Assembly (NCBI GenBank): GCA_040901985.1 | Contig: JBBDYC010000006.1 | Span: 58,379-122,378, forward strand | Source of the DNA: Gemmatimonadaceae bacterium | Lineage (GTDB): Bacteria; Gemmatimonadota; Gemmatimonadetes; Gemmatimonadales; Gemmatimonadaceae | DNA: 64,000 nucleotides | Direction of reading: 5' to 3' | Shown: positions 39,536 through 54,264 of the stretch, in pieces | Layout: each line of letters opens with the position of its first letter | Position numbering within the stretch: the first letter of the stretch is position 1 | Made by a program: the position numbers and the translations under genes | Notes under the pieces: model-generated | The model's database searches: none | Seen by the model: only the letters and a program-made list of their open reading frames with translations | What the model was told of the DNA's origin: nothing

Positions 39536-41884
<2,349 letters not shown>

Positions 41885-41953
41885 GGGGCGGTCCAGGGAA
41901 GGGTTCTTGAGGTCCGCCCATTCTATCCCGCCCCCACCCTTGTCGCCCACCCC

Positions 41954-41987
41954 TTGCAACTTTCGGTGTTTGTTCGGTTATTTAGGT
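41954..41987 (+). promoter_or_regulatory. AT-rich promoter/operator upstream of imuA with direct repeat TTCGGT-N5-TTCGGT
   Basis: TTGCAA at 41954-41959; TTCGGT at 41962-41967 and 41973-41978; also reads TTTC-N7-GTTC. Confidence 0.45.
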
Positions 41988-42716
41988 ATGTCTCTCGCGG
42001 CCGAAGAACTCCGGGCCCAGATCGCCACGGTCGTCGCCGGCGGAGCGCCCAGCCAGACCCCTGCGCTCCCCACCGGACTCCCGCAGCTCGACGCCCTTCT
42101 TCCGGGACGCGGGATCCCTCCCGGGCGCCTGACCGAACTCCTCGCCCCCGCCGGGCTCGGCAAGACGAGCATCGCCCGGGCGATCGTCGCCACCACGCTC
42201 GCCGCCGGCCACGGCGTGGCCTGGGTGGACGCCACCCGCACCCTCGACCCGCGCGACTGGGCCGAGCTCGCCGGCGATGGGCTCTGGGTCGTCCGCCCTC
42301 CCGAGGCGACCCGCGGCGCCTGGTGCGCCGACCTCCTGCTGCGCACCGGCGCCTTTGCCCTCGTCGTGCTCGATGGCGCGCCGGTGCTCTCCCGCACCCT
42401 CGGCGTGCGGTTCGCCCACCTCGCCCGCGAGACCGACAGCGCCCTCCTCCTCCTCGGCGATGGCACCCGGGCCTCGGACCACGGCGGCGTGCTGCGACTG
42501 CGCGTGGGCCGGGATCGCGCGGTCACGCTCGAGAAAGGCGGTCCGTACCACCACGTTCGCCTGGATATCCCTTATGCCGCCAGCATCGCGCGTCGCCTGT
42601 GTACGCATCCCGAGGTTCCCGATCGGCGCGGTGTGGCGCGACGACCCACGCGGCTCAGCCGCGAGCTTCGGAGCCGGCGTTGCGCTCAGCCCGACTATCC
42701 CGTTGCTGCCGTCTGA
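41988..42716 (+). CDS. imuA: ImuA (RecA-like) mutasome protein
   Basis: LPTGLPQLDALLPGRGIPPGRLTEL, GLGKTS, AWVD, ADLLLRTGAFALVVLD; first gene before imuB-dnaE2. Confidence 0.85.
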   Translation: MSLAAEELRAQIATVVAGGAPSQTPALPTGLPQLDALLPGRGIPPGRLTELLAPAGLGKTSIARAIVATTLAAGHGVAWVDATRTLDPRDWAELAGDGLWVVRPPEATRGAWCADLLLRTGAFALVVLDGAPVLSRTLGVRFAHLARETDSALLLLGDGTRASDHGGVLRLRVGRDRAVTLEKGGPYHHVRLDIPYAASIARRLCTHPEVPDRRGVARRPTRLSRELRSRRCAQPDYPVAAV

Positions 42717-44220
42717 CCCCCTCGAGCACTGGGACCAGCGGCCGATTGCGGTCGCCGAGGGGGCGAAGCTCCGTCTCGTCACGGCGGCGGCGACCGCGCG
42801 GCGCGTCGAGGTGGGGATGACCGCTGCCGCCGCGCGCGCACACTGCGCCGAGCTCACGATCCTGCCGTGGGACGCGGAGCGGATCGGCCGCGAGGTGGCG
42901 CGGGCGAGCGCGGCCTTCCTCGTGGCGAGTCCGCAGGTCACGCCGGTGCGCGGTGCACCGGGCACCTGGTGGATCGGCGCCGGCGGACTGCACGGGTCTT
43001 CCCTTGGCGAGGGGACCTTCGCGCGGACGCTCGCAGAACTCGCGCGCGCCTGGCATCCGCGCGCACGGGTGGCGGTCGCCGACAGCTGCGTCGCCGCGCA
43101 GGCGGCCACCTGGTCCACGCGCGCGGCGGGCGGCACGCTCCATCTCCCGCCCGGCGGCGACGCCGAGTATCTCGCGCGGGTCCCGATCGCGCTCATCCCG
43201 ATGGATGGGGAGCTGCGCGAGGCGCTCCTCGCGCTGGGGCTGCGCACGGCGGGCGCCTTTGCCACGCTCGACCCGCTCGACGTGGAGCGCCGCTGGGGCG
43301 ACCTCGGGCTCGCCGCCTGGCGCCTCGCGCGCGGCATTGACGATCGCCGCGCCGCGCTCGCGCGGACCGACGACCCGCGCGCCATCGTGCACGAGCTCGC
43401 CACGAGTGCCGACTCGATGGAACCGGTGCTCTTCGTGGTGCGCGCGGCGCTCGACCGGCTGGTGCACGACCTCACCACCGACGGCCTCGCCGCCGCCGAG
43501 GTGACGATCACGCTGACGCTCGACGATGCGACGAGCGCGCTCCCGCACACGGGGACGCGCTCGCCGACCGTGGTGCGCATCGTGCGGCCGGCGCGACCGG
43601 TGGCACGCCTGGCGCCCCTCTTCGAGCGCTGCCGCGCGCTCCTCGACGATTGGCCGGAGCGGATCCATTTTTCCAACGGCGCGCCGGTGCGCGCGGTCGA
43701 GGTGCGGATCTCCGAGGCGGTCCCTTCCTCGGCCGAACAGCGCGACCTGCTCGCCACCTCGTGGCGCGACCCCGCCGCAGTGGACGCCGCGCTCGAGCGA
43801 CTGCGTGCCAAGCTCGGGCCGGGAAGCGTGGTGCGGTCGGTGCGCCGCGATTCGCACGCCCCCGAACGCGCCGGGCGATGGGATGCGGTGGAGCGACTGG
43901 CTCCGACGCGGACCGCGTCGGTGGTGTCGGAGGCGGCGGAGGCGAGAGCGCCAGCAACGCCGGCGGCGGCGCGGCTCCTCGACCGGCCCGAGGAGATTGC
44001 CGTCACCCTCGACGCGCGCGGCACGCCGCGCGCGCTCGCCTGGCGCGGGCATCGCTTCCCCCTCGCCCGCGCCGAGGGGCCGGAGCGCCTCTCCGGCGAG
44101 TGGTGGCACGCCGATCCGTTCGCGCGGGAGTACTGGCGCTGCGAGAGCGCCAATGACGGCCGCACGTTCTTGGTCTTCCGCAGCGCCGAGGGATGGCGGG
44201 TGCAGGGCTGGAATGATTGA
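42574..44220 (+). CDS. imuB: ImuB, catalytically inactive Y-family polymerase homologue
   Basis: VACVRIP N-terminus, AARRVEVGMTAAAARA, LGLRTAG, HAPE, GPERLSGEWW..REYW; acidic catalytic motifs absent; start MPPAS at 42574 inferred. Confidence 0.85.
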   Translation: MPPASRVACVRIPRFPIGAVWRDDPRGSAASFGAGVALSPTIPLLPSDPLEHWDQRPIAVAEGAKLRLVTAAATARRVEVGMTAAAARAHCAELTILPWDAERIGREVARASAAFLVASPQVTPVRGAPGTWWIGAGGLHGSSLGEGTFARTLAELARAWHPRARVAVADSCVAAQAATWSTRAAGGTLHLPPGGDAEYLARVPIALIPMDGELREALLALGLRTAGAFATLDPLDVERRWGDLGLAAWRLARGIDDRRAALARTDDPRAIVHELATSADSMEPVLFVVRAALDRLVHDLTTDGLAAAEVTITLTLDDATSALPHTGTRSPTVVRIVRPARPVARLAPLFERCRALLDDWPERIHFSNGAPVRAVEVRISEAVPSSAEQRDLLATSWRDPAAVDAALERLRAKLGPGSVVRSVRRDSHAPERAGRWDAVERLAPTRTASVVSEAAEARAPATPAAARLLDRPEEIAVTLDARGTPRALAWRGHRFPLARAEGPERLSGEWWHADPFAREYWRCESANDGRTFLVFRSAEGWRVQGWND

Positions 44221-47200
44221 CCGGCCGCGGCCGGCGTTCGCCGAGCTGCACTGCCACTCGACCTTCTCGCTGCTCGACGGCGCGTCGGACCCCGAGCCCC
44301 TCGTCGAGCGCGCACTGGAACTGGGCCTCGCCGCACTGGCGCTCACCGACCACGACGATGTCGGCGGGGTAGTGCGCTTCGGCACCGCGGCGGCCGCCGC
44401 CGGACTCCCGGGGATCCTCGGCGCCGAGCTCACGGTCGAGGTTTCTTTGCCGGGCAAGCGCGCCGGCCTTCCGCCGCGACTGACCCATCTCGTCTGCCTC
44501 GCCGAGTCGCGCGAGGGGTGGGGGAACATCACGACCCTGATCACCCGCGCGCGCGAGGAGCACGCGCGCGGCTCGCCGCGGGTGGGGCTCGAGCTGCTCG
44601 CGGCGCACGCCGACGGGATCTTCGCGTTGAGCGGCTGTCCGCGCGGCTGGGTGCCGCAACTCCTCGCCGCCGGCGTCCCCGCCGCCGCCCGTCGCGCGGC
44701 GGGCACGCTCGCCGAGATCTTCCGCGGACGTTTCGCGCTCGAGTGCTGGGACCATTCGCTCCCCGAGGAGCGCGCCCTGACGCGGGCGCTCGTTCCGCTC
44801 GCGCGCGCCCTCGACCTGCCCTGGGTGGTCACCAACGACGTGCACTACGCGCGCCGCCGCGACCGCGCGGCGCACGACGTCCTCTCGGCGCTCCGCCACG
44901 GCGCCACCCTCGACGAGATGGGGACGCGCCTCCGCCCCAACGGCGAGTGGCACCTCAAGGGGTACGCGCAACTCGCCGAGCGGTGGCGCGGGATGGAGGA
45001 GGGACTCACGGCGACGCTGCCGATCGCCGAGCGCTGCGCCTTCCGGCTCGCCGCGCTCAAGCCGGCCTTCCCGCTCTATCCCGGATTGCCAGCCGGCGTC
45101 ACCGCCGACGAGTACCTCGCCACGCTGGTCGAGCGCGGCGCGCAGGAGCGCTGGGGATGGAAGCGCACCGCGCGCCACGACCGGCAGATCGAGCGTGAGC
45201 TCACGCTGATCGCCAGGCTCGGGCTGGCCGGCTACTTCCTGATCGTCTGGGACATCGCGCGCTTTGCGCGCCGCGAGGGGATCCTCTGCCAGGGGCGCGG
45301 CTCGGCGGCCAACAGCGCCATCTGCTACTGCCTCGACATCACCGCGGTGGACCCGATCGCGCACAACCTCCTCTTCGAGCGCTTCCTGAGCGAGGAGCGG
45401 CAGGAGTATCCCGACATTGACATTGACTTTGCGCACCGCGAACGGGAACGCGTCCTGCAGTACGTGTACGAGCGCTACGGCCGCGACCACGCAGCGATGG
45501 TCTGCGAGCACATCACCTGGCGCAACCGGAGCGCCATCCGCGACGCCGCGCGCACGCTCGGCTTCTCCCCCGACCAGGCCGACGCACTCGTCCGCTCGCT
45601 CGAGCGGCGCGACCCGGGGCGGCGCAAGGCGCCCGAGGGGCCGATCCCGATGGCCGCCTCGGGCTTCGACGGCCGCGATCCGCGCGTGCAGAAGCTCGCC
45701 GGGATCATCGAGGGCCTGCGCGGCGCGCCGCGGCACCGCGGCATCCACGTCGGCGGCTTCGTCCTCACCGCCGAGCCGCTGCACACCGTGGTGGCGATCG
45801 AGCCGGCGAGCATGGAGGACCGGACCGTCATCCAGTGGGAGAAGGACGACCTCGACGGCGCCGGGCTGATCAAGATTGACCTGCTCGGCCTCGGGATGCT
45901 CACCGTGTTGCAGGACTGCCTTGCCTACCTCCGCACCACGCGCGGCAAGCGGATAGACCTCGGCCAGTTGGAGCAGGATCCCGCCGTCTACGACGACCTC
46001 TGCCGCGCCGACAGCGTCGGCGTGTTCCAGGTGGAGAGCCGCGCGCAGATGAACACCCTGCCCCGCCTCAAGCCGCGGAACTTCTACGACCTCGTCGTGC
46101 AGGTCTCGCTGATCCGTCCCGGTCCCATCCAGGGCGATATGGTGAACCCGTACCTGCGACGGCGCGCCGGGCTCGAGCCGGTGACCTACCTCCATCCCTC
46201 GCTCGAGTCCGTGCTCAAGCGCACACTCGGCGTGCCGCTCTTCCAGGAGCAGGGGATGCAGGTGGCCGTCGCCGCGGCGCGCTTCACGCCCGGCGAGGCC
46301 GACACCCTCCGCAAGGCGATGGGCTACAAGCGCACGCGCCGCAAGATGGCCGAGATCGGCCAGAGGATGCTCGACGGAATGAAGGCCAACGGCATCGCCG
46401 ACGATGTCGCCCAGCGGATCTTCCATCAGATCGAGGGCTTTGCCGACTACGGGTTCCCGGAGAGCCACGCGGCGAGCTTCGCGCTGATCGTCTACGCGAG
46501 CGCCTACCTGCGGCACCACTACGCGCCGGAGTTCCTTTGTGCGATGCTCAACGCGCAGCCGATGGGGTTCTACGCGCCGGGCACGTTGATCGAGGACGCG
46601 CGACGGCACGGCGTGCGCGTGGCGCCGGTGAATGTGCGGCGCAGCTCGTGGGACCACACGCTGGAGCCGAGCCCCAGGCCGGGCGCGCCGCCGATCGTGC
46701 GGCTCGGGCTGCGCGCGGTGATTGGGCTCGGCGGCCACTCGCGCGAGAGGATTGAGCGCGCGTGCGGGCTGCGCGTGCCCGAGCACGGCGGCAAGGCGCC
46801 GCGTCCCTTCACCTCGATCGCCGACTTCGTGCACCGCACCGGACTCGACCGCCGCGCGCTGCGCGCGCTCGCCGGGGCGGGGGCGTTCGACGTCTTCGTG
46901 CAGGACGAGCCGCCGGCGCGGCGGCGGCGCGCCGCGCTCTGGGGCGTGCTCGTGGCGGAGCGCGAGTCGAGCGCCACGTTGACGCTCCCGCTCTTCCCCG
47001 AGTCGAAGGTGCCCGAGTCCCTCCCCGCCTTTGCACCGGTGGAGCTCACCGAGGCAGACTACCGGCTGACCGGCCTCTCCCTCAACGGGCATCCGCTGAA
47101 GCATCTGCGGCCGCTGCTCGACCCCAACGGCGTCTCGACCGCGCGCGGCCTGCGCCGGCACCGCGACGGCGAGCGGGTGGCACACGCGGGGCTCGTCATC

Positions 47201-47452
47201 TGCCGCCAGCGCCCGCAGACGGCGAAGGGGTTCTGCTTCCTCACGCTGGAGGACGAGACGGGGACGGTGAATGTAGTGATCACGCCGGCGCGGTATGAGG
47301 AGCAGGCGCAGCTGATCTCCACCTCACCGCTGTTGCTCGTGCGCGGCGTGCTGCAGGTGGCGCAGGGGGTCTACAACATCCGGGCCAAGGACTTCGTCGC
47401 GATGCGGGCGGGGGCCGGGGAGGAGTCGGTGCGGGGGCACGATTATCGGTGA
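44213..47452 (+). CDS. dnaE2: Error-prone DNA polymerase III alpha (ImuC)
   Basis: FAELHCHSTFSLLDGAS, GRGSAANS, PDIDID, KIDLLGLGML, YGFPESHAASF, NAQPMGFY, RQRPQTAKG; ATG at 44213. Confidence 0.95.
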   Translation: MIDRPRPAFAELHCHSTFSLLDGASDPEPLVERALELGLAALALTDHDDVGGVVRFGTAAAAAGLPGILGAELTVEVSLPGKRAGLPPRLTHLVCLAESREGWGNITTLITRAREEHARGSPRVGLELLAAHADGIFALSGCPRGWVPQLLAAGVPAAARRAAGTLAEIFRGRFALECWDHSLPEERALTRALVPLARALDLPWVVTNDVHYARRRDRAAHDVLSALRHGATLDEMGTRLRPNGEWHLKGYAQLAERWRGMEEGLTATLPIAERCAFRLAALKPAFPLYPGLPAGVTADEYLATLVERGAQERWGWKRTARHDRQIERELTLIARLGLAGYFLIVWDIARFARREGILCQGRGSAANSAICYCLDITAVDPIAHNLLFERFLSEERQEYPDIDIDFAHRERERVLQYVYERYGRDHAAMVCEHITWRNRSAIRDAARTLGFSPDQADALVRSLERRDPGRRKAPEGPIPMAASGFDGRDPRVQKLAGIIEGLRGAPRHRGIHVGGFVLTAEPLHTVVAIEPASMEDRTVIQWEKDDLDGAGLIKIDLLGLGMLTVLQDCLAYLRTTRGKRIDLGQLEQDPAVYDDLCRADSVGVFQVESRAQMNTLPRLKPRNFYDLVVQVSLIRPGPIQGDMVNPYLRRRAGLEPVTYLHPSLESVLKRTLGVPLFQEQGMQVAVAAARFTPGEADTLRKAMGYKRTRRKMAEIGQRMLDGMKANGIADDVAQRIFHQIEGFADYGFPESHAASFALIVYASAYLRHHYAPEFLCAMLNAQPMGFYAPGTLIEDARRHGVRVAPVNVRRSSWDHTLEPSPRPGAPPIVRLGLRAVIGLGGHSRERIERACGLRVPEHGGKAPRPFTSIADFVHRTGLDRRALRALAGAGAFDVFVQDEPPARRRRAALWGVLVAERESSATLTLPLFPESKVPESLPAFAPVELTEADYRLTGLSLNGHPLKHLRPLLDPNGVSTARGLRRHRDGERVAHAGLVICRQRPQTAKGFCFLTLEDETGTVNVVITPARYEEQAQLISTSPLLLVRGVLQVAQGVYNIRAKDFVAMRAGAGEESVRGHDYR

Positions 47453-47469
47453 GGGCACCGCACCTCCCG

Positions 47470-49755
47470 CTACCCCGCCAGCGCCTGCGGCTCCCGCAGC
47501 CGCTCCTCCCCGCCCCCACCGTCCAGGAAGTGCCCGAAGTGCTCGCGGAACGTTTTCGCGATCACCGGATCGAGGTCCGGCGTGACGGGCAGTTCGCTGT
47601 CGAGCACCACGCCGCCGGCCAGCTCGATCCGCGCCCTGAGCGACGCCAGGTCGTGCCCGTCCTCGCTGAAGTGCGCGAGGTATCCGGCGAGGTGGAACGT
47701 CGTGACCACCGTCGCCCCGCGGAGGCGCGCAATCATCTCGGCCCCCGCCGCGCGGAGGTCCGACCCCTCGTCGAGTATCACCGGTTCGGCGCAGGCCAGA
47801 TGCATCCGGCCGAGCCGGATCCGGCCGCGCCAGACGTCGCCGAGCCACTTGTAGAAGGGCCCGATCCGCAACGGTGCCTTGGGCAACCCCGCAAGCTCGC
47901 GCGCGAAGACCGATTCCTCGGGGATGCGGTCGTAGGTGATCGCGATCGGGAAGAGTGCCGACGGGCGCCCGCTCTCTTGGAGGCAACGCATCAGTCCGCG
48001 CTTGGGCGAGAGGAAGGCGCGCGAGCGGCTCCGCTGCCCCTCGATGAAGAACTCGATCACCTCGCCGCGGTCCACCAACGCCTTGACGCGGCGCGAGAGG
48101 TCACGGTTCTCGCGCGACGCCCCGCGCTCCACGTAGAACGCGTGGACGAGCCCGAGGAGCCGCCCGAGGATCGGCAGCCGCCCGAACTCCGCCGCCGCGG
48201 CGATCTGCGGCACGCGGATCCCAAGGTCGGGACGCGCAAAGGCGAGCACCGAGCAGAGGACGAAGTCGAAGAAGCTCCGGTGCGACGGCAGGAGCGCGAT
48301 GGACGCGCCCTCCGGCACCGCGAGCCGCGCCCGCTCGAACGACGGCACGTCCACCGTCACGCGGTCGGCCACGCGGCGCAGCACCTTGATGGACAGCCAG
48401 CAGGCGAAGCGCACGAACAGGTTGCCCGAGGGTTGCGTCGCCGCCCAGCGCCAGTCGCTGATCTGCGGCGCGCTGGTGCGGCCGGCGAGCACCCACTCGC
48501 GGTCGTCCTGGTCGAAGACGTGGCGGGAGATGCCGCGGCAGACGGTGGACACGAGTTCCAGCGGCCGGAAGCGATCATCCAGCGGCACCGACGTCGCGAA
48601 GTCGAACGTCCGACTCGTGAAGTACGGGAAGGCGTCGTTGAGATAGGCGAGGCGCGAGGCCAGCTTCTTGCCCTGCCGCCGGCGGCCCGCCGAGAAGAGT
48701 CCGGCAAGGACCATCGGCACCCGGTGATGGACGAAGTCCGCCATCACATACCGGGCGCCGGCGGGACCGAGGTAGCCGCGGAGCGGCCAGCGGTCAATCG
48801 GCTGCAGCCGGAAATGCCGCTCGATCTCCGCCCAGCAGTCGTGCACCGTCGCCGCACGCGCGGCGCCGGACACCGCGTGCTGCACCGTCACGTTGTCCGA
48901 GTCAATCAGGCTCGCCGCGAGCACGCGGTCCACGACGTCGTCCACCGCAATCAGGTCGAGTCGCGCCTTGGCATTGCCGATCACCGCCCGCAGGTGCCCC
49001 ATCCCGATCAACGTGACGAAGGCGCCGAACCCCGAGCTGCTGTCAATCCACCCCGGCATCGGCTGCGCCCGGGCGGCGGTGATGATGCTCGGCCGCACGA
49101 TGCTCAACCGCACTGACCCGCGCCGCTCCACCAGCAGGCACTCGGCGATGGTCTTGGTCATCGTGTAGGTGTTCGGGTGCCCCGTGCGCGCGAGCAGCTC
49201 GGCGTCGGTGGAGCGCCCGGCGTCAATCGCCTCGAGCATCCCCGAGGCCGGCTCGGGAAGCTTTACGAGTTGCTCGGCGATCACGCCGTCGTGATGCGGG
49301 GTCACGTACGCGGTGGAGACGTAGACAAACCGCGCGAGCCGCGGGGACGACCGCACCGCCTCGAGCAGGTTGAGGCTCGCCGTGATGTTCGCCTTTCCCG
49401 CCACGGCGGCCGGCAGCGTGAAGCCAACCGTCGCTGCCGAGTGGATGACGTGCGTCACGCGCGCCAGCAGGGCCCTGTGGTCGGCCGACTGGCCGAGCGT
49501 GGGGTCGGAGAGGTCGGCGTCAAGCACCTTCACGGCACGCGCCCACCCCGGCTCGAAGTCGGCGAAGCAGGGCGCTGCGATGACCTCCTCACGGAACCGG
49601 TCGGCGGCGCTGCGATTCCCGCGCGCGCGCACCACGACGATGATCTCCTCGACCGCGAACTCGTCGCGTCGCCGGATCAGCTCGTGCAGTAGCACCTTAC
49701 CGACGAACCCCGTCACGCCGGTGACGAGGTAGGTGCGTGTCCAGTGCGCGGTCAT
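47470..49755 (-). CDS. Fusion of a fatty acyl-CoA reductase (FAR/male-sterility type) and a GNPAT/DHAPAT-like acyltransferase (FARAT-like)
   Basis: N-terminal half: TGVTGFVGK, HSAATVGF, YVSTAYV, PNTYTMTK, IVRPSII..PMPGWID. C-terminal half: LLPSHRSFFD (HxxxxD), AFYVER, FFIEGQRSRS, PIAITYDRIPEE. ATG at 49755 overlaps the AGPS stop (ATGA). Confidence 0.85.
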   Translation of the reverse strand: MTAHWTRTYLVTGVTGFVGKVLLHELIRRRDEFAVEEIIVVVRARGNRSAADRFREEVIAAPCFADFEPGWARAVKVLDADLSDPTLGQSADHRALLARVTHVIHSAATVGFTLPAAVAGKANITASLNLLEAVRSSPRLARFVYVSTAYVTPHHDGVIAEQLVKLPEPASGMLEAIDAGRSTDAELLARTGHPNTYTMTKTIAECLLVERRGSVRLSIVRPSIITAARAQPMPGWIDSSSGFGAFVTLIGMGHLRAVIGNAKARLDLIAVDDVVDRVLAASLIDSDNVTVQHAVSGAARAATVHDCWAEIERHFRLQPIDRWPLRGYLGPAGARYVMADFVHHRVPMVLAGLFSAGRRRQGKKLASRLAYLNDAFPYFTSRTFDFATSVPLDDRFRPLELVSTVCRGISRHVFDQDDREWVLAGRTSAPQISDWRWAATQPSGNLFVRFACWLSIKVLRRVADRVTVDVPSFERARLAVPEGASIALLPSHRSFFDFVLCSVLAFARPDLGIRVPQIAAAAEFGRLPILGRLLGLVHAFYVERGASRENRDLSRRVKALVDRGEVIEFFIEGQRSRSRAFLSPKRGLMRCLQESGRPSALFPIAITYDRIPEESVFARELAGLPKAPLRIGPFYKWLGDVWRGRIRLGRMHLACAEPVILDEGSDLRAAGAEMIARLRGATVVTTFHLAGYLAHFSEDGHDLASLRARIELAGGVVLDSELPVTPDLDPVIAKTFREHFGHFLDGGGGEERLREPQALAG

Positions 49756-51521
49756 GCCTTCCCCGCCCCGAAGAGGTTGCGGGGGTCCACGGCCGCCTTC
49801 ACCGCACGCTGCCAGGTGAGCGCGGCCGGGGAGAGCACACGAGGGAGGAATTCCTTTCGCAACTGACCGACGCCGTGGTGGTGTGAGAGCGACCCGCCGC
49901 TCTTCAGGATCTCGTCGCGGGCCGCGCGTTCCAGTATGCCGAACGTCTCGATCGGCCGCGCTGAACCGCCGTGAAAGAAGCCAAAATAAAAATAGACGCA
50001 GACGCCGCTGCCATAGAGCTGGGTGACGCGCGCGGTGACGAAGGGCCGGCCCGGAAGGCCCGTCCTCGCGTACTCGTCGTAGAGCCGCTGCTTCACCCGG
50101 TCGCAGAGCGTGACCGTGTCGCTCCACGCCACCGAGGTCTCGAACGACTCCGCCACCACGCCGAGCTTCATCACGAAGTCGCGCAGGTAGGCGATGCCAA
50201 ACGTGAGCTGATAGCCCTTGCGCCCATTCTCGGCGCCGGCGTGCATCCCGCCGTACTTCCGCGACAGCCGGTTTACCGCGGCGCGTTGCTGCGCCACCTC
50301 GCGCCGCTCGCCCTCGAAAAGGAGCGTGCAGGCGACCATCTGTTGCGGATCGAGGCCCTTCACCCTGGTGACAATCCACTTCTCGAGCTTTCGCTTCCAG
50401 GTCGCGGCGCCGGTCGCCTTCGGCTTCAGCGTCTGGCTGAGCTGGAACTGGAGGTTGTCCACCAGTCGGACGCTCGCCGGCACGCTCCCTTCGCGGCTCA
50501 GCTCGTGCAGGAACTCCACCCCCGTCTCGAAACTCGGAAAGAGGATGGCATCGTGCTGCTCGGTCTCGGGCACCGGGCGCAGCTTCACGACCGCCTGCGT
50601 GACGATGCCGAGCTGTCCCTCCGAGCCGTAGATCCAGCGGCGCGGGTCGGCGCCAATGGACTCGCGCGGCACCACCGGCGTGCGCGAGACGATTCCCGCC
50701 TCGGTCACGATCCGGACGTCGAGCACGAGGTCCTCGATGTTCCCGTAGCGGTTCTTCTTCATCCCGCTGGCGTGGGTGGCAATCCACCCGCCGAGGGTCG
50801 AGAACTCGTAGCTGTCGGGCTCGTGGCCCATCGTGAAGCCGTGCTTGGCGAGGGCGTCGGTGATGTGCCGTCCGATGGCGCCGGCCTCGATGCACGCCGT
50901 GCGGTTGACCGTATCTATCCAGAGGATGCGGTTCATCCGACGCGTGTCCACCGAGACGATCATCCGCTCTTCGTCGGCCGCGCAGCGGAGCGCGTCGGTC
51001 ACGTTCGTGCCGCCGCCGAACGCGACGAGCGAGACGTCGTGCCGCGCCGCAAGCTGGACGATCGTCGTGACGTGCTCCTCGCTCTCCGGATAGACCACGA
51101 GGTCGGGCACGCGCGACAGGCCGCCGTTCCGGACCGCGTAGATCTCCTCAACCGTGTGCCCGTGGCCGTGACGCAGGCGCACCAGCGGCGCGCTCGAGAG
51201 GGCCGCCGCCGGGAGCCGCTGCCTGAGCGCGTTCACGAAGGCGTCGTTGGTCCGCGCGGCCGGCACCGGCGGCGGGTAGTGCCCGTTGTCGAGCGCGGCC
51301 GTGTTGAACGTCACCCCCATCACGCCCTGCACCCACGGCACGAGGTCGGGCAGCTCGAGCCCGCTCAGCGCGTAGCGCGTGCCGCCGAGCGAGACGTTGC
51401 CGTTGGGAAGAATCGTGAACTGGGTATCGCTGAAGCCCCAGGCATCGGGGGCGAGAATCGCATCGGCATCCACCGGCAACGCGATGGGAGCGACGGTGTT
51501 GGAGTCGCGGGTCTGAGGCAT
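49752..51521 (-). CDS. Alkyl-dihydroxyacetonephosphate synthase (AGPS/ADPS), FAD-dependent
   Basis: WGFSDTQF, RHGHGHT, GGGTNV, GHEPDSYEFSTLGGWIATHASGMKKNRYGNIED, GSEG, PASVRLVDN, ESFETS, RVTQLY..GVCVYFYF, GGSLSHHHGVG; start MPQTR at 51521 inferred. Confidence 0.9.
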   Translation of the reverse strand: MPQTRDSNTVAPIALPVDADAILAPDAWGFSDTQFTILPNGNVSLGGTRYALSGLELPDLVPWVQGVMGVTFNTAALDNGHYPPPVPAARTNDAFVNALRQRLPAAALSSAPLVRLRHGHGHTVEEIYAVRNGGLSRVPDLVVYPESEEHVTTIVQLAARHDVSLVAFGGGTNVTDALRCAADEERMIVSVDTRRMNRILWIDTVNRTACIEAGAIGRHITDALAKHGFTMGHEPDSYEFSTLGGWIATHASGMKKNRYGNIEDLVLDVRIVTEAGIVSRTPVVPRESIGADPRRWIYGSEGQLGIVTQAVVKLRPVPETEQHDAILFPSFETGVEFLHELSREGSVPASVRLVDNLQFQLSQTLKPKATGAATWKRKLEKWIVTRVKGLDPQQMVACTLLFEGERREVAQQRAAVNRLSRKYGGMHAGAENGRKGYQLTFGIAYLRDFVMKLGVVAESFETSVAWSDTVTLCDRVKQRLYDEYARTGLPGRPFVTARVTQLYGSGVCVYFYFGFFHGGSARPIETFGILERAARDEILKSGGSLSHHHGVGQLRKEFLPRVLSPAALTWQRAVKAAVDPRNLFGAGKA

Positions 51522-51567
51522 CAGTTGAGGAAGGAGGTCGTGCGGGAAATCTAGCGCAGTCGCGGGC

Positions 51568-52323
51568 TCAAGACGCCTGGGCGGACCGGGCATCGCGCAT
51601 TTCCTGCTCCACGCGCGTCCGGGCATCCACGCCCGGGACCCATCGCCGCAGGAAGCGCTCGAGCCGCGCGAAGACCCGATACCGCTCAAAGAGCGGGTTC
51701 CACAGTCCCACCGTGATGCAGTAGTAGGTGTCGTGGGGGCTCGTGTGGTGCCGGTCGTGGTGGTCCTTGGAGATGATGAGCCCGGCCCTCTGGAGCGCCC
51801 GCACCGGCGCCGGCGGCAGATCCTGGTGCGCCCACTTATGCACCTGGTTGGTCAGGAAGGCCGCCAGCAGCAGTACAAGGACGAACAGCCCGGTCAGGAA
51901 TCCAAGTCTGGTCTCCATCACCGGGACGAGGACCACCGTGGGGATCAGGACGGGGAGGCACACGAGGGCGTTGTTTCCGTTCGCCTCGAAAAAGCCGTGG
52001 CGGGTGATCCCCTTGGGGTCCCGGTGATGCTCGCGGAACGGGAGCACGAACCCCGGCCCGACGAAGGGCGTCTCGGGCGTGCCAAAGTTGTCGGCGAGGA
52101 AGTGCACCACGCCGGAGAGCAGGTCCGCCGCGAGGTAGGCCGCAATCGCCACGACGACGAAGAGCCAGACCGGCATCGGATTGACCTGGATGGCGCGCCA
52201 GACCATCGCGGCGAGGACGCCCATCAGGCCGAAATAGGCCAGATAGCCGACGAGCTGCAACCGACTGTGGAAGGCGGTCCGGGGCCCAGGGGCCGTGTGC
52301 GCGAGCTCGGCGAGGGTGTCCAC
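51568..52323 (-). CDS. carF: CarF/TMEM189 (PEDS1) family lipid desaturase, probable plasmanylethanolamine desaturase
   Basis: Four hydrophobic segments plus His boxes ADLLSGVVHFLAD, FREHHRDPKGITRH, TNQVHKWAH, HHDRHHTSPH and YCITVGLWN. Confidence 0.87.
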   Translation of the reverse strand: MDTLAELAHTAPGPRTAFHSRLQLVGYLAYFGLMGVLAAMVWRAIQVNPMPVWLFVVVAIAAYLAADLLSGVVHFLADNFGTPETPFVGPGFVLPFREHHRDPKGITRHGFFEANGNNALVCLPVLIPTVVLVPVMETRLGFLTGLFVLVLLLAAFLTNQVHKWAHQDLPPAPVRALQRAGLIISKDHHDRHHTSPHDTYYCITVGLWNPLFERYRVFARLERFLRRWVPGVDARTRVEQEMRDARSAQAS

Positions 52324-52476
52324 AAATTCGATTCTATAGAGCCGTGGCCCGTCGCGCTACAGCCGCACCGGGGTCCGGGTCGGGGTTTCTCCCCGGTGCG
52401 GCGAGGCCCTCCCCCGCTTGCCGGGAGGAGAACAGGGAGCGAACCTTGCTCTATCCTCCCGGGGGTCAGTTCAACG

Positions 52477-54264
52477 ATGGCGGCGACAAACGTTTCAGAT
52501 CCACGGTACTACCACAAAGTCGTAGACTGTCAGTGGGCCTGTCCGGCCCACACGAACGTCCCCGGCTACCTGCGCCTCATCGCGCAGGGCCGGTACGACG
52601 ACTCGTATATGCTCAATCGCGAGTCCAACGTCTTCCCGGGGATTCTCGGCCGCACCTGCGACCGTCCCTGCGAGCCGGCTTGCCGGCGTGTGCGCGTGGA
52701 GGAGAAGCCGGTCGCGATCTGCCGGCTCAAGCGCGTCGCCGCCGACCTCCGCGGCGATATCCGCAACCGACTCCCCAAGGCGCCCAAGCGGAAGAACGGG
52801 AAGCGGATCGCCTGCGTCGGCGCCGGCCCCGCCTCGCTGACCATCGCCAACGACCTCCTCCCGCTCGGTTACGACGTCACGATCTTCGACCGCAATCCGC
52901 AGCCCGGCGGGTTGATGCGAATCAACATCCCCGCGTTTCGGCTGCCCGCCGAGGTGCTCGACGAGGAGTGCGCCTACATCATCGAGATGGGCGCGACGAT
53001 GAAGTACAACACGCCGATTGACAGCATGAAGGCGCTGCTTGCCGAAGGATACGACGCGATCTTCGTCGGGAGCGGCGCCCCCAAGGGGAAGGAGCTCGAC
53101 ATCCCCGGCCGCTGGGACGCGCCCGACCAGGTGCACATCGGCATCGAGTGGCTCGCCAACATCCACTTCGGCCACGTCGAGACGATCGAGCCGCGCGTCC
53201 TGATCATCGGCGTCGGCAACACGGCAATGGACTGCTGCCGCACCGCCAAGCGCGTCGGCGCCACCGACGTGAAGGTCATCGCGCGCCGCGGCCGCAAGCA
53301 CTTCAAGGCCTCGCCCTGGGAACTCGAGGACGCCGAGGAGGAGCTGGTCGAGATCATCGAGAACCACGCGCCCAAGCGGTTCATCGTCGAGGACGGGAAG
53401 GTCAAGGGAATGGAGTTCGAGGTCCTCGACTGGACCGAGGACGCCAAGGGGAAGCAGCGGAGCACGGTGCTCCGCACCGCGATCATCCCCTGTGACGCGG
53501 TGATCCTCGCGATTGGCCAGGACAATGCCTTCCCGTGGATCGAACGCGACATCGGGATCGAGTTCGGCGAGTGGGATATGCCGGTGGTGGACCGCCAGAC
53601 CTTCCAGAGTTCGCTTCCCGGCGTCTACTTTGGTGGCGACGCCGCGTGGGGGCCGGAGAACATCATCTGGGCGGTGGCGCACGGGCACGAGGCGGCGATC
53701 TCGATCCACGCCCAGTGCGAGCAGCGCTCCATCACCGCGCGGCCGCCGCACGGGATGACGCTCGTCAGCGCGAAGGTCGGGATGCACAGCTGGGGCTACG
53801 ACAACGACTACGAGACGGCGCGCCGCGCCAAGATGACCCACGAGGAGCTCACCAAGCGCTTCAGCGACATCGGCGTGGAGGTCGAGCTCGGCTTCACGCC
53901 CGAACAGACCGCCGCCGAGGTGCAGCGCTGCCTCAACTGCGACATCCAGACGCACTTCACCGACGCGCTCTGCATCGAATGCGACGCCTGCGTGGACGTC
54001 TGCCCGACGAGTTGCCTCACCATCACCACCAACAGCACGCCGCTGGAAGAGCTCCGCACGCGTCTCACCGCACCGGCAACGAACCTCAAGCAGGAGATCT
54101 ACGTCTCCGGCGCGCTCCCGCAGACCAAGCGGGTGATGGTGAAGGACGAGGACGTCTGCCTGCACTGCGGCCTCTGCGCCGAGCGCTGTCCGACCGCGGC
54201 GTGGGATATGCGGACCTTTGACCTCAAGCTTCCCTATGCCGGTCGCGAGCAGGTGACCCGATGA
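52477..54264 (+). CDS. GltD-like FAD/NAD(P)-binding Fe-S oxidoreductase with C-terminal 2x[4Fe-4S] domain (KorC-like)
   Basis: CQWACP, CDRPCEPAC, GAGPAS, GVGNTAMD, RCLNC, CIECDACVDVCP, CLHCGLCAERCP; ATG at 52477. Confidence 0.85.
   Translation: MAATNVSDPRYYHKVVDCQWACPAHTNVPGYLRLIAQGRYDDSYMLNRESNVFPGILGRTCDRPCEPACRRVRVEEKPVAICRLKRVAADLRGDIRNRLPKAPKRKNGKRIACVGAGPASLTIANDLLPLGYDVTIFDRNPQPGGLMRINIPAFRLPAEVLDEECAYIIEMGATMKYNTPIDSMKALLAEGYDAIFVGSGAPKGKELDIPGRWDAPDQVHIGIEWLANIHFGHVETIEPRVLIIGVGNTAMDCCRTAKRVGATDVKVIARRGRKHFKASPWELEDAEEELVEIIENHAPKRFIVEDGKVKGMEFEVLDWTEDAKGKQRSTVLRTAIIPCDAVILAIGQDNAFPWIERDIGIEFGEWDMPVVDRQTFQSSLPGVYFGGDAAWGPENIIWAVAHGHEAAISIHAQCEQRSITARPPHGMTLVSAKVGMHSWGYDNDYETARRAKMTHEELTKRFSDIGVEVELGFTPEQTAAEVQRCLNCDIQTHFTDALCIECDACVDVCPTSCLTITTNSTPLEELRTRLTAPATNLKQEIYVSGALPQTKRVMVKDEDVCLHCGLCAERCPTAAWDMRTFDLKLPYAGREQVTR

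Follow-up and report, generated by a model that had tools for sequence, protein, structure and literature searches.

On the minus strand of the 64,000-nucleotide stretch of Gemmatimonadaceae DNA analysed here (the window), three intact genes form a compact unit. Starting from the 5′ end, they encode a carF/PEDS1-like desaturase, an alkylglycerone-phosphate synthase (AGPS) and a fusion of a fatty acyl-CoA reductase (FAR) with an acyltransferase (AT), with the coordinates listed in Table 1. The stop of agps and the start of far::at share an ATGA, which by sequence is a case of translational coupling. The carF–agps spacer was searched for a terminator-like site and none was found, and a scan of positions 47200–52700 found no sigma-70-like promoter; the three genes are presumably co-transcribed.

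Table 1 Features of the three-gene unit, with positions in the window or, for domains, in the protein
Feature	Position	Strand	Details
carF/PEDS1-like desaturase, P0001	51568..52323	-	251 aa, GTG start, intact ORF
Spacer carF–agps	51522..51567	-	46 nt, read from sequence
AGPS, P0002	49752..51521	-	589 aa, intact ORF
agps stop/far::at start overlap	49752..49755	-	ATGA, direct from sequence
FAR::acyltransferase fusion, P0003	47470..49755	-	761 aa, intact ORF
P0003 N-terminal fatty acyl-CoA reductase	~1–420 aa		PF07993, 184.5 bits
P0003 C-terminal PlsB/GPAT/GNPAT-clan acyltransferase	~425–750 aa		PF01553, 57.3 bits

A gap of 17 nt separates the unit from the stop of the converging dnaE2, part of an imuA-imuB-dnaE2 set on the plus strand; on the other side, also on the plus strand, are genes for a GltD-like oxidoreductase and a 2-oxoacid:ferredoxin oxidoreductase. 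The coordinates thereby bear out the layout described in the initial annotation, with its 46-nt gap, ATGA overlap and unrelated opposite-strand neighbours. The carF-agps-far::at order recurs in seven other genomes with differing flanks, which argues that the arrangement is not due to chance. The GC3 of the unit (0.90–0.92) and the codon usage of its genes (39th–66th percentile among 1197 long host ORFs) are host-like, and where the closest relatives of the genes carry a name, they belong to Gemmatimonadaceae/Gemmatimonadota MAGs. With a contamination of 0.86%, these observations rule out a myxobacterial or contaminant source and agree with the non-myxobacterial Gemmatimonadota host first proposed. 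The enzyme families had also been assigned correctly, as Pfam places P0001 in PF10520, P0002 in PF01565 and PF02913, and P0003 in PF07993 and PF01553.

On sequence grounds, P0002 is an alkylglycerone-phosphate synthase (EC 2.5.1.26) and the orthologue of Myxococcus xanthus MXAN_1676. It matches mammalian peroxisomal AGPS (4bby) over residues 15–585 at 539 bits (E 1e-160), against 109 bits for the best non-AGPS family, glycolate oxidase, and a reading as a generic FAD oxidase was dropped on that difference. Residues H233, R352, Y510 and H547–H549, invariant in 54 sequences, align to the mammalian active site, where we take the equivalents to be H300, R419, Y578 and H615–617. Among the 51 closest FAR loci of a GTDB scan, 46 have agps directly 5′ of far::at.

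The FAR domain of P0003 has the rice FAR DPW (7eoz) as its top match in both sequence and fold (model pLDDT 62.9) and carries TGxxGxxG and YxxxK motifs, the latter (Y197xxxK201) invariant. The Pfam FAR C-terminal Sterile domain (PF03015) has no match in P0003, nor do the dataset rows for MXAN_1675 list one; residues 296–421 are conserved and helical in a model whose confidence is low there. In the AT domain, the HxxxxD and FxEGxRSR blocks are present, with H492xxxxD497 and E572-G-x-R575-S-R577 invariant. Profile matches to PlsB-type 9vuq (E 4e-31) and GPAT1 (7e-29) are far better than that to PlsC (2e-6), and a PlsC reading was dropped; GPAT_C matched weakly in 11 of 34 AT family members and gave no match in P0003, which is also without the ~130-residue tail of non-Gemmatimonadota orthologues. 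The family is far from the PlsB of most Myxococcaceae-like genomes (branch length 1.9) and is fused with an SDR in two bacterial proteins. In eukaryotes it comes closest to diatom proteins that join FAR, AT and AGPS in a single chain, a fusion for which no description was found in literature that took in few subscription journals. P0003 is the orthologue of MXAN_1675.

From the coupling and fusion of the AT with AGPS, we infer that its acceptor would be DHAP and not G3P. The initial GNPAT label stands as far as the PlsB/GPAT/GNPAT clan is concerned; the name itself was drawn from context, and the PNAS GNPAT datasets S2 and S9 (PMC13012113) contain neither the family nor MXAN_1675. This absence, the GPATs as best solved relatives, and Spirochaetota loci that keep AGPS and FAR with a decayed AT, so that AGPS can run without an AT there, would suit an enzyme acting on G3P or a lyso-lipid after the ether step, with acyl-DHAP supplied from elsewhere. 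We consider such a late-acting AT highly improbable, given the poor PlsC match, the diatom fusions with AGPS and the PlsY and three other PF01553 proteins that cover ordinary acylation steps in the source genome (G000); the structure matches, moreover, included no solved GNPAT for comparison. As G000 has GpsA in addition to PlsY, the AT of P0003 is not needed for ordinary G3P acylation, and DHAP is kept as its predicted acceptor.

P0001 matches PF10520 at 175.6 bits (Pfam cut-off 26.4). Aligned with two myxobacterial CarFs, it has all eight universal PEDS1 histidines (H74, H99, H100, H162, H166, H189, H192 and H193), which are the criterion for PEDS1/CarF in PMC9131029. A ninth, H109, aligns to the ITRH histidine of the two CarFs and corresponds to CarF H113 (numbering counted by eye in dataset rows), the residue by which PEDS1 is told apart from FAD4 and from alphaproteobacterial homologues; D78 and F96, equivalent to human D99 and F117, are invariant in the same alignment. 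With the nine histidines, Asp and Phe all kept, a FAD4 reading was dropped. A PEDS1 relative was looked for among solved structures and none was found. P0001 is a predicted plasmanyl-ethanolamine delta-1′ desaturase.

The retention of these eleven essential residues, and of carF 46–60 nt 5′ of agps across genomes of three genera, argues against a rival reading in which the unit makes alkyl ethers but its desaturase does not act on them as a PEDS1, having drifted to another lipid or to mainly scavenged ether lipids. That reading draws on a score of 177.4 bits to the NCBIfam equivalog NF045946 (PlasmethDesatCarF), under its cut-off of 500, and on an Asn at the H113 position, carried by 14 of 120 close homologues as well as by the operon-linked copy of genome G137. 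Members of the subfamily are also encoded where AGPS is missing, in genome G012 (76% complete) and in Rubrobacteraceae (12 PEDS1 rows and zero AGPS rows in the PNAS datasets, PMC13012113), and of the 16 genomes in the genus that carry AGPS, 9 lack any PF10520 gene. By its score, P0001 is placed outside the myxobacterial CarF equivalog, which counts against its being CarF and not against its working like PEDS1; in the tree it joins myxobacterial CarF with weak support (bootstrap 60), and the nearest relatives of its subfamily are Rubrobacter proteins. A non-PEDS1 desaturase is in our view unlikely, and we retain the PEDS1-like prediction.

The AGPS-FAR::AT operon is patchy across many phyla. 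Of the 55 genomes of the genus, 16 carry AGPS and the very same 16 carry FAR::AT. Across the Gemmatimonadaceae, carF is inside the unit in eight genomes of three genera; in wider samples the route is present in 10 of 331 genomes of the family and 3 of 301 of the phylum. A downstream NAD-dependent SDR, present in six operons of the genus, is missing next to the unit, and no copy turned up elsewhere in G000. The literature searched, again with few subscription journals, gave no description of ether lipids or of the three-gene unit in Gemmatimonadota.

In the genus, carF and phototrophy genes do not occur together, with pufLM in none of the eight carF genomes versus 23 of the 55 genomes of the genus (Fisher p 0.015, with kinship ignored). 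On an RpoB tree (FastTree, 42 genomes; 10 were without rpoB, and G005, G012 and G019 were dropped as doubtful or short fragments), carF and pufLM are both clustered, with 3 and 7 changes versus 5.7 and 14.3 when shuffled. Over 3–5 independent host lineages the exclusion gives 0.07–0.20, and its significance was dropped once kinship was counted. In G000 itself pufLM was not found, and the notion of a phototroph with PEDS1 was set aside. A genus that mixes phototrophs with non-phototrophs, and three-gene with two-gene forms, makes the idea of PEDS1/photosynthesis exclusion testable.

In the pathway we propose, the FAR domain would supply fatty alcohol from acyl-CoA (or acyl-ACP) and the fused AT would turn DHAP into acyl-DHAP, after which AGPS would exchange the acyl chain for an alkyl chain. 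A putative unlinked host reductase would then give alkyl-G3P, host PlsC/CdsA/PssA/Psd-type enzymes would carry this to plasmanyl-ethanolamine, and the CarF-like desaturase would form the vinyl-ether bond with O2. The unit holds the four families (FAR, AT, AGPS and desaturase) and is not the whole pathway, as it has no candidate for the alkyl-DHAP reductase. A search for an MXAN_1674-type SDR came up empty in G000, G019, G052, G137 and G253, and G000 has nothing clearly orthologous to a classical SDR that adjoins the operon in G137 (best 37%). In G000, a pssA-like gene lies beside psd, and cox1 is present; plasmalogens are plausible in a host that produces phosphatidylethanolamine and uses oxygen for respiration.

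What the analysis establishes is which genes these are, that their catalytic residues are kept, how they co-occur and are ordered, and that the host has psd/pssA and cox1. On this footing the unit probably synthesises alkyl-ether phospholipids, which would then be turned into plasmalogens by an O2-dependent route; alkyl ethers are very likely among its products, plasmalogens likely. The genes could instead be intact and the route silent or marginal, with little or no ether lipid in the cells, as the patchy distribution, the absence of a linked reductase, the minor contribution of MXAN_1676 (PMC9131029) and a Trichoderma precedent would allow. Reading frames and catalytic residues are, however, conserved among relatives at 53–75% identity, and tblastn of G000 found no second FAR-like domain, so that an ElbD-type alternative does not appear to take over. 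We rate a silent route as slightly less credible than a non-PEDS1 desaturase and continue to favour active synthesis.

What is new in the locus is limited, as agps and far::at are the described MXAN_1676/MXAN_1675 pair (PMC9131029) and the same trio stands in the PNAS datasets (PMC13012113). With carF inside the same unit as AGPS-FAR::AT, the locus is a variant whose parts are known from Myxococcus. It probably goes back to an MXAN_1676-1675 module that gained carF on its upstream side and passed from one genus of Gemmatimonadaceae to another. More tentatively, one might picture a mobile single-transcript cassette, enough with host enzymes for plasmalogens outside myxobacteria, with carF kept, within one genus, only in non-phototrophs and phototrophs having at most the alkyl-ether half; FAR::AT would be a second 'FARAT' lineage, distinct from that of animal GNPAT, with the diatom FAR-AT-AGPS proteins as eukaryotic descendants. 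If true, the carF split would offer a bacterial test of whether vinyl ethers are selected against by the singlet oxygen that photosynthesis produces. Plasmalogen formation by the unit would in itself bring Gemmatimonadota into the group of aerobic plasmalogen producers. The 4.9-kb unit, with FAR, AT, AGPS and desaturase from a host without an ElbD-like domain, is a construct with which to rebuild aerobic plasmalogen synthesis in a laboratory bacterium and could settle the role of MXAN_1675-type proteins.

The same three genes occur in another Gemmatimonadaceae genome as the consecutive WYBP01000008.1_380/381/382 (243/588/760 aa) of PNAS 2026 datasets S1, S5 and S4, listed gene by gene and undiscussed (PMC13012113). 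GNPAT dataset S2 has no Gemmatimonadota row, so this genome is probably not among the 73 'complete' ones, and the place of the AT family outside that GNPAT set suggests that 73 complete bacterial genomes is a low count (PMC13012113). The validated Leptospira PEDS1 shares the PF10520 family and, by eye, motifs with P0001, and Leptospira has AGPS without FAR1; plant FAD4 shares PF10520 and has Arg at the H113 position, where P0001 has His. The animal FAR1/GNPAT/AGPS/PEDS1 (TMEM189) pathway comprises the same four reaction types, and its AGPS aligns over the full length. Here, however, FAR and AT are fused, the AT is much shorter than GNPAT, to which we claim no orthology, cytochrome b5 was not found in G000, and a linked alkyl-DHAP reductase is absent. 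In M. xanthus, the operon MXAN_1676-MXAN_1675-MXAN_1674 encodes AGPS, FAR::AT and an NAD-dependent SDR, with carF unlinked (PMC9131029; PMC13012113). Deletion of MXAN_1676 lowers ether lipid, to which the enzyme contributes a minor share only, and the activity of MXAN_1675 was never shown (PMC9131029); the AGPS route there is masked by ElbD. The Gemmatimonadaceae unit differs in having carF within it, in lacking the SDR in this subclade, in a shorter FAR::AT (761 versus 868 aa), in a desaturase of another subfamily, closest to Rubrobacter proteins, and in a non-myxobacterial host in which tblastn saw no ElbD-type FAR domain. The two systems nevertheless have orthologous AGPS and FAR::AT genes in the same order (motifs compared by eye with dataset rows) and a nine-histidine desaturase in common, and the Archangium and Cystobacter loci are 39–41% identical to P0003 over the fusion.

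The carF-agps-far::at unit is very probably an ether-lipid/plasmalogen unit. Its three co-oriented minus-strand genes, with a 46-nt spacer between carF and agps, an ATGA overlap between agps and far::at, and unrelated flanks, were described in the initial annotation, and the intact reading frames and their coordinates confirm this layout. The unit ends 17 nt from the convergent dnaE2 of an imuA-imuB-dnaE2 cassette; the other unrelated neighbours are GltD-like and 2-oxoacid:ferredoxin oxidoreductase genes. GC3 and codon use are host-like in all three genes. The organisms named for its nearest homologues, and the record titles of the closest GTDB loci among the matches listed, place the host probably in Gemmatimonadota. 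The host genome (G000; 2.64 Mb, completeness 99.97%, contamination 0.86%) has psd adjoining a pssA-like gene, as well as cox1, so that substrate head group and oxygen would be on hand for the desaturase P0001; no cytochrome b5 was found in this genome.

Coordinates of the carF-agps-far::at unit and of the cassette that converges on it
Feature	Position	Strand	Remarks
P0001, carF/PEDS1-like	52323-51568	minus	intact ORF, 251 aa
P0002, AGPS	51521-49752	minus	intact ORF, 589 aa
P0003, FAR::acyltransferase	49755-47470	minus	intact ORF, 761 aa
imuA-imuB-dnaE2, damage-inducible mutagenesis cassette	41877-47452	plus	

P0002 is a predicted AGPS, matching the mammalian peroxisomal enzyme over almost its full length (539 bits, E 1e-160), Dictyostelium AGPS with 299 bits and the next family with 109 bits. 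The active-site residues (His, Arg, Tyr and the HHH motif) line up with those of mammalian AGPS and show no variation in 54 relatives. P0003, judged by its domains, is a FAR::acyltransferase (AT) fusion. The N-terminal domain (PF07993, 184.5 bits) has the YxxxK motif and the rice FAR DPW as top match by sequence and by fold (model pLDDT 62.9), and the C-terminal domain carries HxxxxD and FxEGxRSR.

P0001 contains every residue required in PEDS1: the eight histidines universal in the PEDS1/CarF family, the ninth (CarF H113, here H109) that marks the functional enzymes in animals, myxobacteria and Leptospira, and one Asp and one Phe that are likewise needed (PMC9131029). These residues (H74, D78, F96, H99, H100, H109, H162, H166, H189, H192 and H193) do not vary when P0001 is aligned to two CarF proteins from myxobacteria, and by this test P0001 is a putative PEDS1. 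It scores 177 bits against the myxobacterial CarF equivalog, below the 500-bit cut-off, and in a 41-sequence tree its neighbours are Rubrobacter proteins and further operon-linked copies, and this group joins myxobacterial CarF with a bootstrap of only 60. The ninth position is His in 105 of 120 close homologues, Asn in 14 and Ala in 1. The nearest named relatives outside Gemmatimonadota are Rubrobacter proteins (P0177, P0229, P0234 and P0237; 53-54%), cultured species included; for Rubrobacteraceae, the PNAS 2026 datasets (PMC13012113) hold PEDS1 and FAR::HAD rows and no AGPS rows.

Genes 2 and 3 correspond to a known operon, given the MXAN_1676-1675-1674 operon of Myxococcus xanthus (AGPS, FAR::AT and an NAD-dependent SDR) described in PMC9131029 and the diagnostic motifs, compared by eye, that P0002 and P0003 have in common with the M. 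xanthus entries in the PNAS 2026 datasets, where an 868-aa FAR + acyltransferase adjoins a 631-aa AGPS. The AGPS-FAR::AT operon is widespread yet patchy. A GTDB scan gave at least 245 relatives, with 80 loci kept; among the 51 closest FAR loci of the matches listed, examined for neighbours, AGPS lies directly upstream in 46 and the SDR downstream in 25. By record title, the operon loci listed belong to Gemmatimonadota, Myxococcota, Acidimicrobiia, Sericytochromatia, Binatia, Nitrospira, Spirochaetota, Bacteroidetes and others. AGPS with FAR::AT falls from 16/55 genomes of the genus to 10/331 in the family sample and 3/301 in the phylum sample, the latter two with only four candidates scored per genome. 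In the family around an Archangium locus, some AT match occurs in 58/61 genomes, mostly PlsB-like, and the MXAN_1675 type in only 4/61. In five Spirochaetota loci (L124, L128-L131), the tail behind AGPS and FAR resembles a decayed acyltransferase and lacks HxxxxD; L129 has a classical SDR immediately behind the fusion, and L131 a PF10520 gene on the opposite strand with Arg at the H113 position.

The acceptor of the AT domain is where the initial annotation, sound in outline for the AGPS, FAR and desaturase families, went further than the evidence. A profile of 34 AT sequences matches a PlsB-type structure at 4e-31, a GPAT1 structure at 7e-29 and PlsC at 2e-6. We infer DHAP as acceptor because AGPS and FAR::AT share the same 16 genomes of the genus, because the host already has PlsY and GpsA, and because diatoms have fusions of this AT family with AGPS. 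Against DHAP use count the lack of a tail of about 130 residues in the Gemmatimonadota copies and the absence of these proteins and MXAN_1675 from GNPAT datasets S2 and S9 of PMC13012113. That paper names MXAN_1675 as the myxobacterial FAR-GNPAT fusion, and its GNPAT datasets include a different M. xanthus protein; PlsB-type proteins may underlie its 'FARAT' tree.

The diatom proteins emerged from a search of 1.84 billion representatives with the AT-domain profile, in which chains of 1,400-2,700 aa rank after the bacterial family (fusion-related proteins P0330, P0331, P0340, P0342-P0344, P0353 and P0380). A domain scan of 17 long proteins shows five single chains that contain complete FAR, AT and both AGPS domains, and a sixth in which FAR is partial; these domains often follow an acyl-CoA-binding domain and a DegT-like domain, giving the layout ACBP - DegT-like aminotransferase - FAR - acyltransferase - AGPS. 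Among 20 proteins looked up, all species-named fusions are from diatoms, centric and pennate (Seminavis robusta, Cylindrotheca fusiformis, Chaetoceros debilis, Stephanodiscus triporus, Nitzschia inconspicua and Thalassiosira profunda); their identity is 41-44% with P0002 and 35-44% with the AT domain. In a tree built without eukaryotic GNPAT, the diatom AT is the sister group of the bacterial MXAN_1675-type family, far from PlsB. The PNAS 2026 datasets contain Cylindrotheca only with FAD4 and Seminavis nowhere, and the literature searched yielded no description of the fusion. The fusion supports coupling of the FAR, AT and AGPS activities and merits separate study.

carF lies directly upstream of agps in six genomes of the genus (G000, G019, G021, G041, G065 and G052, the last with the unit split across three contigs) and in two other genera (G137 and G253), with flanks that differ from group to group. 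The arrangement recurs in 2 of the 51 closest GTDB loci among the matches listed, both titled Gemmatimonas or Gemmatimonadota; in two further loci a desaturase lies close by but is arranged differently. An AGPS+FAR tree of 65 taxa unites most copies from Gemmatimonadota in one clade (0.995). Within it, copies of the genus without carF make up a single clade (1.0), and those linked to carF fall into two groups, each well supported but joined without support (0.28). The copies of G137 and G253 lie within those of genus g1, which points to movement of the unit between genera. In G137 (L238:6273-12115), the operon-linked carF has Asn for the ninth histidine, and a classical SDR of 270 aa, a possible alternative reductase, lies 167 nt behind far::at. 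Operons of the genus without carF (L029, L031, L033, L035 and L036) often have a PAS-GGDEF-EAL protein upstream of agps, identified for L036 and assigned elsewhere because length and start are similar; downstream, a LuxR-family AAA ATPase converges on them.

The MXAN_1674-type SDR was not found in any of five genomes searched of the host's subclade; tblastn places it in six other operons at 46-95% identity. FAR::AT::SDR triple fusions occur at L122:6001-9477 (1169 aa, titled Nitrospira sp.) and in P0249 (1113 aa). They link this SDR to the pathway, plausibly as the alkyl-DHAP reductase.

Photosynthesis has been proposed to select against PEDS1 (PMC13012113). Within the genus, the phototrophy marker pufLM occurs in 23/55 genomes and a PF10520 gene in 8/55, with no overlap; phototrophs make up 4/9 AGPS carriers without carF and 0/7 with it. 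Fisher's p = 0.015 for the separation of PF10520 genes and pufLM across the 55 genomes, a comparison in which many genomes are incomplete, is an overstatement, since carF and pufLM both cluster on the RpoB tree and all four phototrophic AGPS carriers fall in a single carF-less clade; counted on 3-5 independent lineages, the value is 0.07-0.20. Two rpoB copies, L042 (G065:C205) and L078 (G012:C223), are just 59-60% identical to that of the host and are probably contaminant contigs in their bins. In the family sample, pufLM occurs in 45/331 genomes and in 0/10 AGPS carriers; six phototrophs have PF10520 genes of other subfamilies, all without AGPS, and at the H113 position the five of these proteins placed in the tree carry either Arg or Asn. 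The exclusion is a lead, not a result. In genus g63, phototrophic genomes (L177, L179-L181, L183; G221, G309, G356, G334, G376) have another PF10520 subfamily without AGPS, with an RHWIDTNGD motif in which the His is displaced by one, adjoining an apparent sterol-desaturase-family gene (labelled by eye).

The novelty of the gene set is limited. According to PMC13012113, 73 bacterial genomes, 12 of them from outside Myxococcota, have all four enzymes; its datasets list PEDS1, AGPS and FAR+acyltransferase of one Gemmatimonadaceae genome as WYBP01000008.1_380, _381 and _382. Gemmatimonadota is unnamed in the passages searched of that paper's bioRxiv text and of bioRxiv 10.64898/2026.06.23.733905; the searched parts of PMC13159169 gave no match, and those of PMC11316326 and PMC9244630 nothing on the unit or the diatom fusion. 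Neither ether lipids nor the unit had been described for Gemmatimonadota in the literature searched. The unit is built from known parts, of MXAN_1676-1675 type as to genes 2 and 3, and published tables already list it for a relative; its value lies in a compact test construct and in two leads, phototroph exclusion and the diatom fusion. Compared with the M. xanthus module, its variant feature is that carF has been recruited in and the SDR lost.
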